Shown here: positions 1 through 49,282 of the stretch, piece by piece | How positions within the stretch are numbered: the stretch's first letter is position 1 | Layout: every line of letters starts with the position of its first letter | DNA from: Candidatus Yanofskybacteria bacterium RIFCSPHIGHO2_01_FULL_41_26 | Lineage (GTDB): Bacteria > Patescibacteriota > Minisyncoccia > 2-02-FULL-40-12 > GWA2-44-9 | Reading direction: 5' to 3' | Length of the DNA stretch: 64,000 bases | NCBI GenBank assembly: GCA_001794055.1 | Contig: MGJB01000006.1 | Coordinates: 90,168-154,167 of the forward strand | The notes under the pieces: generated by a model | What the model was told of the DNA's origin: nothing | What the model saw: the letters and a program-made list of their open reading frames with translations, nothing else | The model's database searches: none | Made by a program: the position numbers and the translations under genes

Positions 1-1273
<1,273 letters not shown>

Positions 1274-4757: not shown

Positions 4758-5576
4758 ATGATTACTTTCAGGAAATTAGGACTCTTAGGGAGGTTTGGCA
4801 ATCAGCTTTTTCAATATGCCGGCGCCAGAATGTACGCGGATATCAATGGATTTAAGAGCGCTTTTCCAGGTTGGGTTGGTAATAAAATTTTCGAAAATAT
4901 CATATCTTATAACAATCGCGAGTATCTGTTGAGCCGGTTTTTGCCAACTCGACAATTAAACGACTTTCTCTCTTATACCCGCACAGACAAAATAAAATAC
5001 ATGCTTCGTCTTCAGAAACAACTGCCCCAAACTATTGCACTGAATAAATTATATGCGCATCCGGAAGATAATATAAACTTTTTAGGATATTTCCAAAATG
5101 AATTGAGTTTAAAAATATTAAAGGAAAGAAAAAATTACGTTTTAGGTTGGTTTGTTTTTAAAAAAGATATCGCTGATGAGTTTAAAAAGGTAACTCAAAA
5201 CTATAAGCCCTGGACAGGAATTCATATTCGAAGAGGCGACTTTGTAAAAAGGGGCCTTTCTCTGCCGGTTTTTCTTTACAAAGATTTTTTAAAAAGTGTC
5301 GACAAAAAAAATATTTATATTTCCTGTGATGACCCGGAAACAATCTCTGAATTTAAAGATTACTCGCTTATAAGACCAGCAAATCCCTTGCCCGAAATAC
5401 CTAATTTTATCTTTGACTTTTGGATGTTAAAAGAGTCAGAGATGGTTTTGGGTTGCGGTTCGACTTTCTCTTGGTGGGCGGCTTATTTAGGTAACCGAAA
5501 CAATTATTTCAGTCCACCGCTGACTCATTTGTGGCCAAAAGGATATAAACCGACATTAGGAAAAATGGATATCTGA
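4758..5576 (+). CDS. Alpha-1,2-fucosyltransferase (GT11)
   Basis: GRFGNQLFQY, HIRRGDF and STFSWWAAYL GT11 motifs. Confidence 0.85.
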   Translation: MITFRKLGLLGRFGNQLFQYAGARMYADINGFKSAFPGWVGNKIFENIISYNNREYLLSRFLPTRQLNDFLSYTRTDKIKYMLRLQKQLPQTIALNKLYAHPEDNINFLGYFQNELSLKILKERKNYVLGWFVFKKDIADEFKKVTQNYKPWTGIHIRRGDFVKRGLSLPVFLYKDFLKSVDKKNIYISCDDPETISEFKDYSLIRPANPLPEIPNFIFDFWMLKESEMVLGCGSTFSWWAAYLGNRNNYFSPPLTHLWPKGYKPTLGKMDI

Positions 5577-5582
5577 ATTTTA

Positions 5583-6584
5583 TCATTTGAACAAATGAAT
5601 TATTTTCATGGCCCTCTGCTTTAAAGTGTGGTCTTTCAACAGACGTTCATGGCCCGCTTTTGCAATAACTTGTCTTTCATTCTCATGTTTGAGATAATAG
5701 TCAACCTTGGATTGCAGGTCGTTTAGATCTCGAAAAATAACTATTTCTTTGCCTGGAATAAAAAGATCTTCCACATCCTTTCGCCAGTCAGAGATCTGAA
5801 AACCTCCGGCCGCGACAATTTCAAACGTCTTAACATTAACGCCGTTTGTTGCCGGTCTTGTATTCATATTTAGACAAATCTTCGCACGTTTATACGCCTT
5901 GACTGATTCGGCTGCATTAAGCGGCCCGAAATATCTGTCAGCCAATTGGGTCTTCTCCCATCCGCTCCAGCCGAATATTTTTATGTCATAATTTTTAAGA
6001 GCCAATAAGGCCTCCGCCCTTTCCGGATATGCCGCCCCAATAAAACAAATGTCGCATTGAAATTTTTCTTTATCTTTTTCGATAATATCGGCGCCAAGTT
6101 CAACCGGATCAGCTCCGAATGGCACATATTTTATCTTATTTGGAAACTCTAACGTCCTTCTTTCCGTGATCGATGAATCAAATGTCAAGAAAAAATCGTA
6201 ATAGGCGTAACGCGATAAAAACCATTTGTCATATGGGGGGCGATAAATATTCTCTGGAAACCAATTTGCGGTTTTTATGCCCATCTCTTTAATCTTGTTT
6301 AACGTGTTGGGCCTGACACTGGTTGCTTTTATAAACAAAACTGCTTGCGGTTTGAAATTAACACAAGCCAAGATTAATTTATTCTCCAAAAGTTTTTTAT
6401 TGAACTGCCTTAAATGCGGAGTCTTTCTCGCTATGTTCCATAATACAGAAATTTTTCCTAAAAATTTAGGAAGAAAATGCGCCATCCGTTCCTCTATATA
6501 AAAAATATCAACGCCGCAAGCAATAAATGCTCTTTTAATTTGATCATTATAATCGGAATGAGGTGCGACAATTATCAGTTTCAT
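5583..6584 (-). CDS. CgeB-like glycosyltransferase (Glyco_trans_1_2)
   Basis: DICFIG, AKICLN, NVKTFEIVAAGGFQISD, ERQVIAKAGHERLLKDHT. Confidence 0.8.
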   Translation of the reverse strand: MKLIIVAPHSDYNDQIKRAFIACGVDIFYIEERMAHFLPKFLGKISVLWNIARKTPHLRQFNKKLLENKLILACVNFKPQAVLFIKATSVRPNTLNKIKEMGIKTANWFPENIYRPPYDKWFLSRYAYYDFFLTFDSSITERRTLEFPNKIKYVPFGADPVELGADIIEKDKEKFQCDICFIGAAYPERAEALLALKNYDIKIFGWSGWEKTQLADRYFGPLNAAESVKAYKRAKICLNMNTRPATNGVNVKTFEIVAAGGFQISDWRKDVEDLFIPGKEIVIFRDLNDLQSKVDYYLKHENERQVIAKAGHERLLKDHTLKQRAMKIIHLFK

Positions 6585-6607
6585 TTTTTAATATTCTCGA
6601 TAGAACT

Positions 6608-7660
6608 TCATGTAAACATACCGCTTATTTTAGATATAATTTTTTTTAGATCATGATGTTTAACAACAGATTCTTCTAAACTTTCGCTCATTTCCTTTAT
6701 TTTTTCAGAAGATAACTTCAGAAAATCCTCTACTTTATCTGCTAAATCTTCCGCATTTCCATATTCAAACAGCAAATACTTTTCGTAACCAGCCAAATAC
6801 GGAACAAAAACAGGATTAGCAACAAAAACCATACATCTCATAGCCATCGCCTCCAGAACCACCTTATCAATTCCGCCCTTAGGCGCAGGATTAATTAAAA
6901 TATCGGCTTTTTTGTAGTATTCAGTGGTCTGACCATAAGGAATAAATCCGATAAATTCCACTTGATTATTTAAATTTAACTCTCCGACTAATTTTTTCAA
7001 ATCTTCAAAATACTTAAAATCTGGAGGCATTACTGGTTGGCCGACTATTTTCAACTTAAAATTCAATCCTCTACTTTTTAAAATTCCCATCGCCTTAATA
7101 AGAGTTTCGAAATTCCTAATTCTAGAAATCCGCCCTATGCTTAAAATCATTAGTTCATGACTCGATGTTCTTGATTCAAGGTTTTTAAATCTATTTATGT
7201 TGATCCCATGGCCAATTTCAACTATTTTTTTGCTTTTTAAATTTAAACTTTCTTTTGCGGCTGTAGCAATTCTGTAAGCAAGTCTCTCGGCTATCTTTAA
7301 TTTTAAAGTTACTGAGCGATGTAAATACCACAAAATTATTTTTTTTCTGTATAAAAAAGTGAGTGGCCAGGAAGCAATAACGAATATCGGCGAGGAGTAT
7401 GCAAAAATGCCGCTGGAGCTTGGTACAAATCGCGCTAGGTGCCAGTAAAAAATAATCGCCTGCGTAAATTTAGACAGACCGCGCTCTTTACCAAGTGAAT
7501 AGATGTGGACCTTTTCTGGCAATGTATATATACCCTTCGAAACAGTTATAATATTAACTTCGCTGAAGTTTTTTGCAAACTCTCTTATCCAGTCAATAAA
7601 AAACCCGCGATGGTTGTCGTTCTCATCAACTTTCTGGGTTATAATTAATAAATTTTTCAT
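6608..7660 (-). CDS. Glycosyltransferase family 4
   Basis: GHGIN, SIGRISR, GGIDKVVLEAMA. Confidence 0.88.
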   Translation of the reverse strand: MKNLLIITQKVDENDNHRGFFIDWIREFAKNFSEVNIITVSKGIYTLPEKVHIYSLGKERGLSKFTQAIIFYWHLARFVPSSSGIFAYSSPIFVIASWPLTFLYRKKIILWYLHRSVTLKLKIAERLAYRIATAAKESLNLKSKKIVEIGHGININRFKNLESRTSSHELMILSIGRISRIRNFETLIKAMGILKSRGLNFKLKIVGQPVMPPDFKYFEDLKKLVGELNLNNQVEFIGFIPYGQTTEYYKKADILINPAPKGGIDKVVLEAMAMRCMVFVANPVFVPYLAGYEKYLLFEYGNAEDLADKVEDFLKLSSEKIKEMSESLEESVVKHHDLKKIISKISGMFT

Positions 7661-41860: not shown

Positions 41861-42129
41861 GAGCTAACGCTATGGATATTTCTCAGTCGCGATACCGGCA
41901 AATTGCGAGTGGCACAAGAAGCAACAACGAAGGTGTACTCATTGTACTCCGAGGAGGAGCGACGCAGTGTCCACTCGCAATTTGCCTTATCCCTCCTGGT
42001 TCTAGCTATTTTGTCCTATCGCTGCGTTACTTCTCGTCGCTGTAGTACCAACTACAACTTCCTTGAAGTGCCTGGCGCTAAGACAAAATAGCTAAGAACG
42101 CGACTGAGAAATATCCATAGCATTAGCTC
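41861..42129. mobile_element. MITE/REPIN-like structured element with 31-bp terminal inverted repeats
   Basis: 41861-41891 vs 42099-42129 inverted with 1 mismatch; two internal ~16-bp stems. Confidence 0.65.
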
Positions 42130-46568: not shown

Positions 46569-46603
46569 GAATTCTTCATTTCCTCTCCTTTTAAGTCTGA
46601 AGT

Positions 46604-46680
46604 TGGCGGGCCATGAAGGATTTTTACCTTCACCTTTCGGTTTTGGAGACCGATCGCTCTGTCTTTTAAGCTACTGACCC
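46604..46680 (-). tRNA. tRNA-Trp(CCA), atypical/degenerate
   Basis: Cloverleaf with TCGGT-CT-CCA-AA-ACCGA anticodon arm, G73, encoded CCA; T-loop TAAAAAT, D-loop lacks GG. Confidence 0.7.
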
Positions 46681-46855
46681 AAAATTGTGAAAAAACGAGG
46701 GAGGGAATCCGTGGGCGCTCCGCACACCTCCGGGGAGCATGCCCCAAAGGTGCGTATTACTCTCGGATTTTCCACAATTCCCTCCCACCAAAATCCTGAG
46801 CTTAGTCTAAGGACTTTTGTGGGAGACCGAGCACATTGTGCTCGGTCGGATGACG

Positions 46856-47176
46856 CTACAGGTAGCGCTTGAAGGCCTGGCGGGCGGCCATGGTTCGCTC
46901 GGCGCGGCGCCGTTCCATCTCGACTACCGTTTGCGGGTAGCGATAGAAACGGAGACCGGCCTTGCGACCCAGAGCTGCGCACCGACCACAGTGGATGTGA
47001 TCGGCCAGATCCTTGGCCATGGAAGGCCAGCGACCGGCCATCCTGCGTATGGCGGCCAGCGTCGGCACCCAGGCCTCGGCCTGCGTCAGCTTCGCCGTGC
47101 ACGGCTTGCCCGGATAGGGCTCGCCATGACACACAAAGGGCTTCGCCGGCACAACAATGGAAACTTGCTCTGTCAT
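46856..47176 (-). CDS. Small basic Cys/His-containing hypothetical protein
   Basis: AGGAGGT SD before ATG; CHGEPYPGKPC...HIHCGRC. Confidence 0.6.
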   Translation of the reverse strand: MTEQVSIVVPAKPFVCHGEPYPGKPCTAKLTQAEAWVPTLAAIRRMAGRWPSMAKDLADHIHCGRCAALGRKAGLRFYRYPQTVVEMERRRAERTMAARQAFKRYL

Positions 47177-47333
47177 CTGACCTCCTAAAAAGAACTGGTT
47201 AAACTACTCCCATCAAAATGTTCAAAATCGAGCTTTTAACATTTTGATGGGATGGGGAGAATTGCCTGTTCTACTCTCCCCCTTTGCCTGTTTATTTTTC
47301 GTCGGACACAGCAGGCTCCGACTAGGGTACCCG

Positions 47334-47591
47334 CTAGTTCAAATGAATCAAACTAGCGAACCACTGCGGTCCTAATACCCTAATGCCGTTTTCCCTTGCA
47401 AGCTCTCGTAGAGCCGCAAGTTCATCGACATAAGGAGTAAGAACTTCACCCCCATTCATCCGTTCCACCTTTCGGAAGAACTTTTGAATAGAAGCGCAGT
47501 AGTTAAATAACTCCAGCGCAGGTCTTACCTGACCATCTGGAGCTGGTACCCAGCTGAAAGTGGGCTTCCGCCCACCCTTCGGCTTGTACAT
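47334..47591 (-). CDS. Hypothetical protein (85 aa)
   Basis: Open frame within the transcription unit; no clear SD. Confidence 0.35.
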   Translation of the reverse strand: MYKPKGGRKPTFSWVPAPDGQVRPALELFNYCASIQKFFRKVERMNGGEVLTPYVDELAALRELARENGIRVLGPQWFASLIHLN

Positions 47592-47639
47592 ATCATGAAA
47601 AGAACTCTTCGACTCACTCTGTTCGCTCAGAGCAAGCCC

Positions 47640-48000
47640 GGGAGGGATGGTGGTGGGCGCTGGACCGTAGCTCGCAAGCAGCGAGCTTCAGGCATTCGCG
47701 ATCCATTTGGGTTCACCTGATACCAAGCCGTCGCCGTCACGGAAGGCCTAGCCCCCGCGGCATACGATCGGTCTCTTGGCTAGGTTCCGCACAACGCTCG
47801 CTTGCTAAACGAGGGTCCCCAATGCGGTATTCCTGCCACGCCATTCACCACATCCCCCTACTTAAACTGATTCTGCCACCAATGCAATGAACATGCACCT
47901 CGACAGAGAGTTTTACCGGCTAAAGCACGGTACACTCCGAGACAAGAATAATCAGCTTAAGCAGGAGGACGTGATGGTCATCAAACCACTGCCCCCTCCT
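47640..48000 (-). ncRNA. Candidate structured ncRNA, family not recognised
   Basis: 27-bp helix 47846-47872/47950-47976 with five G-U pairs only on the minus strand; multiple internal stems. Confidence 0.6.
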
Positions 48001-48121
48001 ACTCTACCTACTTTTATAAAGTTTGGCTAAAGAGCTCAGAACCGATTTGAGGGTCCGGTATATTTGTTTAACGGTTGCCTCTCAATTTGATCGTTTCCTC
48101 TTTCTTTAACCTTACGGCAAG

Positions 48122-48150
48122 ATACTATCACAAAACAAAAATCTTGTCAA
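48122..48150 (-). promoter_or_regulatory. Sigma70 promoter
   Basis: Minus strand TTGACA-17 nt-TAGTAT. Confidence 0.75.
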
Positions 48151-48302
48151 GTCCTTTTGACATTTTAAAACTAAAAAACATCAAAAACTGGCTTAGAATA
48201 TAGATTATTTTACTACTATATTTTGTCAGTAAAAACTGAATTTATACTCAAGATCAGACCTCAAATAAATTTCCCGAGGACCGTCCTCGGTGTCAACAAA
48301 GC

Positions 48303-48331
48303 TTGACAAAATAAATAAAGTAGAATATAAT
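48303..48331 (+). promoter_or_regulatory. Perfect consensus sigma70 promoter
   Basis: TTGACA-17 nt-TATAAT. Confidence 0.85.
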
Positions 48332-48472
48332 AGTAGACGATGGCAGGACAGGAGTTCTGCCTTCAGGAAAGGAGGATTCATCGTGGGAGCTCTATAAAGA
48401 CCTTATTTATAGACCTACGAAAATAAAGTAGTAAAAAATGGTCGTCCTAAAATCCACTTTCAGACACGAGAG

Positions 48473-48538: not shown

Positions 48539-49282
48539 ATGTTTGAAAAGTTACGACATCTAGGACTTTCTGAAAACGAAGCCAAAATATATATGGCCAT
48601 GTTGGAGTTGGGCCCTTCAATAGTAGTTGAAATTGCAAGAAAATCCCAAATCAACAGACCGACTTCTTATGTTCAGATTGAATCCCTCAAGAAAAAAGGG
48701 CTTGTCAGCACTCAAATAAAAGGCAAAAAACAATACTTCATGGCCGAATCTCCCGATAAATTAGAACTCCTGATAGATAGTGAGTTCAAAACACTTGAAA
48801 ACAAAAAAAGTGAACTAAATACTTTTTTGCCGGAATTACTGAATCTTTTTAATAGTTCTGATCAGAGACCGCATGTTAAATTCTTTGAAGGCAAAGAAGG
48901 TGTTTTGGCTTTGCAAAAAGAATTTTTAAAAACAGATGATACTCCTATACTTGGAATCACATCTCTAGATAACGTATTTGAAGTATTCCCTGAATTTGAA
49001 AATACTTACATAAAGAAAAGAGTCCAAAAGAAAATATCTTCCCGAACGATTTATACTTCCAAGAAAGGCCCCATATTAAAAGAATCGGACGAGACAAGCT
49101 TACGAGAATCCAAATACGTTGAGCCGAATCAATTGCCTCTCGGAATTGATATCACTGTTTTCAAAAACAAGGTTGCCATTGCAGCCCTTAAGGGTAAAAT
49201 ATCCGGAACCCTAATCGAACACGAAGAAGTTGCCGATTCTTTCAGGGCAATTTTTGAACTTGTTTGGAGTAAAATAGATTAA
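48539..49282 (+). CDS. TrmB family transcriptional regulator
   Basis: LGLSENEAKIY..LLELG, RPTSY...L.KKGLV, PHVKFFEGKEG. Confidence 0.85.
   Translation: MFEKLRHLGLSENEAKIYMAMLELGPSIVVEIARKSQINRPTSYVQIESLKKKGLVSTQIKGKKQYFMAESPDKLELLIDSEFKTLENKKSELNTFLPELLNLFNSSDQRPHVKFFEGKEGVLALQKEFLKTDDTPILGITSLDNVFEVFPEFENTYIKKRVQKKISSRTIYTSKKGPILKESDETSLRESKYVEPNQLPLGIDITVFKNKVAIAALKGKISGTLIEHEEVADSFRAIFELVWSKID

Follow-up and report, generated by a model that had tools for sequence, protein, structure and literature searches.

A candidate doubly pseudoknotted RNA with a built-in rival fold in an optional gene island of Candidatus Yanofskybacteria

Introduction

Ornate RNAs with two pseudoknots are seldom met in bacteria, and several of them have proved to be ribozymes, riboswitches or abundant scaffolds. 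The group I core arranges its helices in the order P3, inserted domain, P7, P3', P8, P7', while HDV-like ribozymes place a P3/L3 hairpin between the crossing helices and use P1.1 and a catalytic C in J4/2. Among regulatory leaders, the trp-type four-segment attenuator works with successive strand pairings that are mutually exclusive, and the early mRNA of phage T7 carries RNase III processing stems with 5' stabilisers. Such stems are not known to hand one of their strands to a 215-nt double-pseudoknot domain.

Three published sources add to this picture: the lariat-capping ribozyme (LCrz) folds in an inactive form during transcription and is switched on later (PMC5393178), both pseudoknots of raiA RNA use a single P5-P6 linker (PMC12968392), and RNase III of Bacillus subtilis cuts long intramolecular duplexes in mRNAs (PMC11780869).

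Here we analyse an element found in what we call the window, i.e. the whole 64-kb stretch of DNA under study, which lies on contig C6 of a genome of about 800 kb. On comparative sequence grounds the element is best described as a narrowly distributed family of RNAs with two pseudoknots that is missing from the catalogues, in kind an orphan ornate bacterial RNA. It offers a model backed by covariation, a built-in rival fold and natural deletion variants from which a minimal core can be read; it also suggests that an optional island of small genes is controlled at the RNA level, in ultra-small bacteria whose regulation has hardly been studied. The narrow range limits the reach of the finding. 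No description of the element was found in the literature searched, most subscription journals being outside reach; the main texts of PMC11109978 and PMC5737381 hold no Patescibacteria or Parcubacteria terms, and their supplements may hold unnamed motifs.

Results

The local G+C around the element is 0.54 vs about 0.38. The element is flanked on one side by a divergent TrmB-family gene and on the other by two small unnamed ORFs, a tRNA-Trp and a dCMP deaminase gene, and no ORF longer than 47 aa overlaps 47640-48000. A promoter on the minus strand at 48150 is directed into the element, and the core domain lies 313 nt behind it (Table 1). Promoter-like sites occur upstream of the core on the same strand in G001, G002, G030, G036, L067 and G063; in G064 the promoter-like site is 1.5 kb upstream and the core is without a promoter of its own.

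Table 1. Features of the element and its surroundings (window positions).
Feature	Position	Strand	Remark
Inter-gene stem, 16 bp	46781-46826	minus	
106-aa Cys/His-rich ORF, no family, island marker	46856-47176	minus	
Inter-gene stem, 19 bp	47208-47252	minus	
85-aa ORF, no family	47334-47591	minus	homologues in the islands of G001, G063, L067
3' tail: self-complementary hexamer, REP-like insert (about 47606-47637), U-rich GUUCUUU tract	47598-47642	minus	
3' strands of P7, P1b and P1a	47642-47667	minus	strand 4 is 47642-47655
P3 3' strand, invariant UGA, P8 hairpin (47669-47687)	47669-47694	minus	P8 loop kisses L5
P7 5' strand	47699-47705	minus	partner 47661-47667
J6/7, nearly invariant single strand	47706-47715	minus	
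P6	47716-47784	minus	base conserved, arm freely varying
J3/4, invariant P4 (47822-47827 with 47787-47792), internal loop, P5, L5 (47801-47809)	47787-47831	minus	
P3 5' strand	47834-47837	minus	partner 47691-47694; crosses P7
P1b 5' strand	47838-47842	minus	partner 47656-47660; junction pair always Y-G
P1a 5' strand (strand 3)	47846-47858	minus	common to P0 and P1a
P0, strand 2 (47950-47976) with strand 3 (47846-47872)	47846-47976	minus	closes a variable apical region
Small dispersed double-hairpin	47901-47942	minus	inserted in the P0 apex
Strand 1, purine-rich, SD-like	47985-48001	minus	partner strand 2 or strand 4
5' leader hairpin, 14-15 nt A/U-rich loop	48040-48092	minus	separate module; fold and alignment of 11 loci
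Sigma-70-type promoter, TTGACA-17-TAGTAT, extended -10	48122-48150	minus	
TrmB-family regulator gene, divergent, part of the optional island	48539-49282	plus	Pfam PF01978

An earlier note on this DNA had proposed a structured RNA read from the minus strand, with two arms pairing over 27 contiguous bp and all five non-Watson-Crick positions being A-C on plus, hence G-U on minus. Our recount agrees: this helix, P0 (47846-47872 with 47950-47976), has 22 Watson-Crick and 5 G-U pairs on the minus strand with no other mismatch, and a duplex energy of -42.6 kcal/mol. Its 27 bp compare with 17-19 bp for the longest comparable helix in each of 10 block-shuffled 64-kb windows. The fold of 47640-48000 beats all shuffled controls (0/100 as good on either strand), more strongly on minus (z = -5.19) than on plus (z = -3.19). 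A structured RNA on the minus strand is supported. For the 3' domain alone z is -3.01 with 200 shuffles and -1.7 with 25, and nine homologous domains range from -2.9 to -6.8 in the 25-shuffle run.

P0 is the entrance to the element; the core lies elsewhere, in a domain of about 215 nt (47642-47858, minus strand) closed by P1. The P0 apex, like P6 and P8, varies freely and tolerates insertions. The double-hairpin of about 42 nt in this apex (47901-47942) is missing in G002 and has many copies elsewhere in G001-G007, and a related copy sits inside P8 of G001; the peripheral arms of the RNA have been invaded in two genomes. A resemblance of this small insert to HEARO was considered; the HEARO model (RF02033) has no match in the genome, but as it has none in 14 controls either, this search carries no weight.

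The core was compared over ten distinct full-length sequences, 55-83% identical to the window. Compensatory changes among these ten homologues are found in P1b, P3, P6, P7, P8 and a loop-loop kiss. Segments were fixed by anchors for the covariation counts, and the homologues are close kin, so that the permutation p values overstate the case. Thus read, P1b is paired in 39/40 cells against a permuted mean of 32.2, P3 in 42/50 against 35.8 (p 0.001 without kinship correction, the start of P3 being placed by eye in each sequence), and P7 in 66/70 against 57.3, with two-sided changes in four of its seven pairs. Taking P7 and P8 together in 9 sequences—three with long P8 inserts being left out—96.7% of 122 cells are paired and 9/14 pairs show two-sided changes; none of 500 shuffles scored as high, and controls slid along the sequence gave 18-38%. 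The first five pairs of P4 never vary and are therefore without covariation support. Since P3 and P7 cross, they form a pseudoknot, the main feature of the element, which folding programs miss and which was absent from the earlier note; the comparison of homologues reveals it.

The second tertiary contact had been suspected as a possible kissing of AGCA with UGCU. Both loops are present and supported by the homologues: a Watson-Crick partner of 4-5 nt for L5 lies in the unpaired part of P8 in 9/10 by script, that of G064 being found by eye only. The contact is AGCA/UGCU in four homologues, another four have UAGC/GCUA types, and GUGAG/CUCAC stands in G001, where the two loops have changed together. 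The domain of about 215 nt had also been described as containing a CCUAGCC/GGCUAGG pair; the domain stands, but among the ten homologues only the window has the 7-bp pair (1/10), which competes with the covarying P6 base. We likewise dropped a pairing of the J4/5 GGAC with the 3' strand of P7, which by reading of the alignment is not kept across homologues. Across the ten rows 43 of 249 alignment columns are invariant, many of them unpaired. The covarying tertiary contacts together with the invariant junctions indicate that selection acts on the folded RNA.

Each arm of P0 had been given an alternative partner, and both pairings exist, with bulges: 47958-47980 with 47983-48002 (-25.1 kcal/mol) and 47839-47858 with 47640-47662 (-26.7 kcal/mol). 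The first of them (proposed as 47962-47978 with 47985-48000) corresponds to a hairpin of strands 1 and 2 which, by eye, is found mainly in the clade of the window. In 10/10 homologues, 5-10 nt of P1a also belong to an upstream stem of 10-29 contiguous pairs. Nested ensemble energies favour this stem in 7/10, by 3.2-11.4 kcal/mol (3.9 in the window), and P1a in the three others, G001, G036 and L064. In the P0 state P4 persists in 8/10 and P7 in 6/10, so it is mainly the outer closing helix that is exchanged. The mutually exclusive folds are supported, but the switch is narrower than had been claimed, as what it exchanges is the partner of the P1a 5' strand. A conserved leader peptide in strands 1-2 was also considered and dropped, frames and lengths differing among homologues.

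In L064 the stretch at about 200-400 (reverse strand) contains two copies of the P1a 5' strand, one on either side of a long hairpin that has been inserted. The insertion separates P1a from the ancestral P0 and weakens the overlap, which counts against a strict need for a switch.

Two reduced variants retain P1 and the kiss and lose most invariant bases; they may be decayed copies. The variant of G025 (z = -4.16) has a P1 of 15 contiguous pairs and still shows P3, P7 and P8, the UGAAG junction and a loop complement of 6 bp, but its inserted domain is unrelated and the P4 and J6/7 motifs are missing. In that of G065 (z = -3.56), read by eye, P1 remains, along with a hairpin whose loop carries the L5 sequence and an arm resembling P8 that contains the partner sequence, but P3 and P7 are missing. 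In G025 the P1 5' strand is at the same time the 3' arm of the recurring inter-gene hairpin of the island. As the overlap there involves a different long stem, the kept feature appears to be a long double strand and not one sequence.

Among 61 relatives, BLAST matched the core in G001, G002, G030 and G036, and a pattern search added G063. Model R1 matches 7/105 genomes of the order, all of family f1 (6/61 besides the genome of the window, adding G064), with a single core in 7/7 and no second copy in the genome of the window. Model R2, whose training set included G025, matches 8/105, adding G025. For each model the genome of the window is the sole match among 151 genomes of the class; a lone weak match in the phylum, G309 (17.5 bits, E 0.0075, in 150-151 genomes), was treated as chance. 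Of five loci from metagenomes, three (L064, L066, L067) are full and distinct; L068 is a repeat of L067, and L065 covers only a part. Records carrying the same RNA are assigned to Candidatus Yanofskybacteria (L054, L059), and three others are labelled uncultured Saccharibacteria.

An exact-pattern scan of GTDB returned 21 matches, of which 5 are true homologues and 16 are without the other motifs; the matches allowed two mismatches in G098 and G053 are also without them and were read as coding DNA. A structural descriptor, which we use as a lead tool only, recovers 8/10 full homologues and G025 among the loci given, misses L066 and L067, and has 3 other matches scoring at least 26 in the genome of the window. 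Four scans of viral contigs gave 1, 4, 0 and 0 matches, none homologous on reading, and BLAST against phage and plasmid records gave no match. The range is narrow and patchy, a few tiny groundwater bacteria within one Yanofskybacteria family; the core was not found in complete close relatives such as G003. The genome sets being samples searched with strict filters, "not found" is meant and not "absent".

The element is without a match to a known family in Rfam. Over the whole window Rfam 15 returned 3 tRNAs only at the gathering score; a search of 46600-48400 at E up to 10 gave no match over 47640-48000, and nine homologous loci searched at E up to 5 gave 9 weak matches, all below the gathering score. 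The signatures of RNase P, tmRNA, SRP and group II introns, which the earlier note had not seen, are indeed missing from motif and Rfam searches. For RNase P, the CR-I/CR-V motifs are found in 0/10 cores and the true gene is on contig C15 (RF00010, 130.8 bits); for tmRNA, RF00023 has no match over the element and the true gene is on C17 (132.8 bits). The SRP RNA model RF01854 has no match, its S-domain motif is found in 0/10, and no SRP54 exceeds the cut-off in the genome; the group II domain V motif is found in 0/10 cores, with no Rfam match in the region. The 6S RNA model RF00013 has no match in the genome, and the fold of the element is multi-branched and knotted, where 6S RNA is a rod with a central bubble. 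The bulge motif of T-box leaders is found in 0/10. The flanks of P4 were likened to J11/12-J12/13 of RNase P and to the c-di-AMP riboswitch; both likenesses were rejected, Rfam supporting neither and the RNase P gene of the genome having no counterpart.

The island around the element is optional. G004 has an empty site where both the TrmB gene and the operon are missing, and G005 has another insert there. For the 106-aa protein 46 of 48 candidates are homologues, and there is a group of more distant paralogues; the protein is found in 12/105 genomes of the order. It has no Pfam family, its NCBIfam match is sub-threshold, and atlas searches with it and with the 85-aa protein gave no usable family. 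The first gene downstream of the core differs among homologues, and in G064 the core stands in mid-operon. Long stems are dense in the islands, with 3 in 1.9 kb in the window and 11 in 3.8 kb in G064, against 0-1 per 1.9-kb stretch in seven background stretches. The genome encodes RNase III, RNase J, RNase Y and NusB.

The inter-gene hairpins of such islands recur (16-21 bp), also in L096 at 4900-7600 (reverse strand), and are often followed by a U-rich tract and a SD. The gene content between the recurring hairpins varies among relatives, as in a cassette array. Elsewhere in the window, the longest helix has 31 bp and closes a branched hairpin of about 270 nt between two genes (41861-42129, minus).

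The 5' leader hairpin is a second uncatalogued motif directly behind the island promoter, and is more widespread than the core. Its loci include L004, L032, L089, L090, L091, L092, L095 and L009, and in several relatives a long helix follows. It occurs in islands without a core, namely those of G061 and G062 and the second island of G064; in G064 it also sits 1.4 kb from the core. On the other side of the element, the REP-like insert of the 3' tail has further copies at G000 C9 and behind the homologue of G030. The hexamer just 3' of P1 (47637-47642) is self-complementary in most homologues, and both symmetric positions change between clades. It is a possible dimer site, the changes corresponding to one or two independent events only.

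Discussion

We tentatively favour, with rather less than even confidence, a reading in which P0 is cut by RNase III, whereupon P1a closes and the RNA is shielded from decay by its knotted fold. P0 would fold first in the nascent transcript, forming an extended duplex comparable to the other inter-gene stems of the island. RNase III would then cleave P0 and the upstream piece would depart; P1a would close over the new 5' end, and the compact knot would shield that end from RNase J. Protection would extend either to the message of the small genes downstream or to the domain itself once released, the two folds being precursor and product rather than two ligand-controlled states. The element resembles known RNase III processing stems in having a long intramolecular inter-gene duplex in a genome that encodes the enzyme. 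The overlap of P0 and P1a in 10/10, the dense stems of the islands and the presence of RNases III, J and Y all count for this reading, and the varied first downstream genes, with the mid-operon place in G064, fit a portable element. On the other side, the 43 invariant positions exceed what a mere stabiliser would need and fit a binding or catalytic site, and the P1a-closed form is already the better fold, uncut, in G001, G036 and L064. Above all, processing and protection leave the invariant unpaired bases unexplained.

Alternatively, the core may sense a ligand or a protein, whose binding would stabilise P1a and hide the pyrimidine-rich strand 4, or alter the U-rich tract, thereby shifting downstream expression. 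We consider such a switch unlikely. It is consistent with the four-strand relay, whose states are near-equal in energy (+3.9 kcal/mol in the window; +3.2, +3.4 and -2.4 in its clade), with the invariant unpaired bases, with the U-rich tract 3' of the domain and the encoded NusB, and with the SD that G002 and L066 have 36-49 nt into the stretch downstream. As in a four-segment attenuator, pairings 1:2, 2:3 and 3:4 exclude each other and precede a U-rich tract; unlike in the attenuator, the 3:4 pairing encloses a domain of 200 nt and stops 4-5 nt short of that tract, and there is no conserved leader peptide. The 4-5 G/C bases between P1a and the U tract are also unlike a terminator, and the competing helix lies upstream, not downstream. 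Moreover most homologues retain P7 or P4 when P0 is formed, and a SD script finds none downstream in 6/10 (one cut by a contig end), a distant one only in two more and a close one in 2/10. The variety of downstream genes argues against a classic metabolite riboswitch.

Less likely still, in our judgement, is a stand-alone RNA acting in trans, i.e. a scaffold like raiA that would be co-transcribed with the island and then released. The single copy in 7/7 genomes and the self-complementary hexamer in most homologues point that way, as does a likeness in kind to raiA—size, paired ends, two pseudoknots—as given in PMC10861870 and PMC12968392. The element differs from raiA in its long-range P3/P7 crossing and loop-loop kiss, and has no Rfam match; raiA spans two phyla (Bacillota and Actinomycetota), the element one CPR family. 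The narrow, patchy range, with complete close relatives such as G003 in which it was not found, and the G064 core without its own promoter speak against a stand-alone RNA.

We doubt even more that the element is a new ribozyme class, inactive while P0 forms during transcription and cutting or capping the transcript once P1a closes. The covarying P3, P7 and P8, in the same order as in the group I core and the lariat-capping ribozyme and with an inserted domain, would suit it, and so would the invariant junctions and the constant Y-G pair at the P1b junction. According to PMC5393178, LCrz sets the precedent of an inactive co-transcriptional fold followed by activation, and it too lies 5' of a reading frame. 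By contrast, R-like and S-like group I motifs are found in 3/10 and 1/10 cores, neither forming P7; the P7 of the element runs straight into P1b, with one nt between P8 and P7 and no P9. An HDV-like fold is also at odds with the P7-P3 linker, of 2-4 nt in 10/10, which leaves no room for P3/L3. No Rfam ribozyme matches even at E up to 10 and 5, and the G025 variant is without the P4 and J6/7 motifs. That a ribozyme with a group I-like P3/P7/P8 knot of unrelated sequence, activated by strand exchange, would cut or cap polycistronic RNA in CPR bacteria is a long shot, of the same low standing.

The least probable reading is a structured passenger or mobile element that does nothing for the host, comparable to the hairpin repeats dispersed in these genomes: the optional island with its empty site in G004, the varying position within islands and the small mobile hairpins inserted into the element would fit it, but the single copy per genome, the strand tied to the promoter, the selection on the folded RNA suggested by its covarying tertiary contacts and invariant junctions, and the searches of phage and plasmid records and viral contigs, which returned no homologue, count against it.

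Three observations concern the genomes rather than the element. With the queries used, the whole genome G000 gives no match for 6S RNA, large SRP RNA or SRP54. The neighbouring tRNA-Trp (CCA anticodon, 46607-46680, minus) scores only 47 bits and has an unusual T loop. Finally, the best Rfam match of L114 (1454-3071, on contig C4 of G000) is the archaeal 16S rRNA model, with 1379 bits, in a bacterial genome; this contig is possibly mis-binned.
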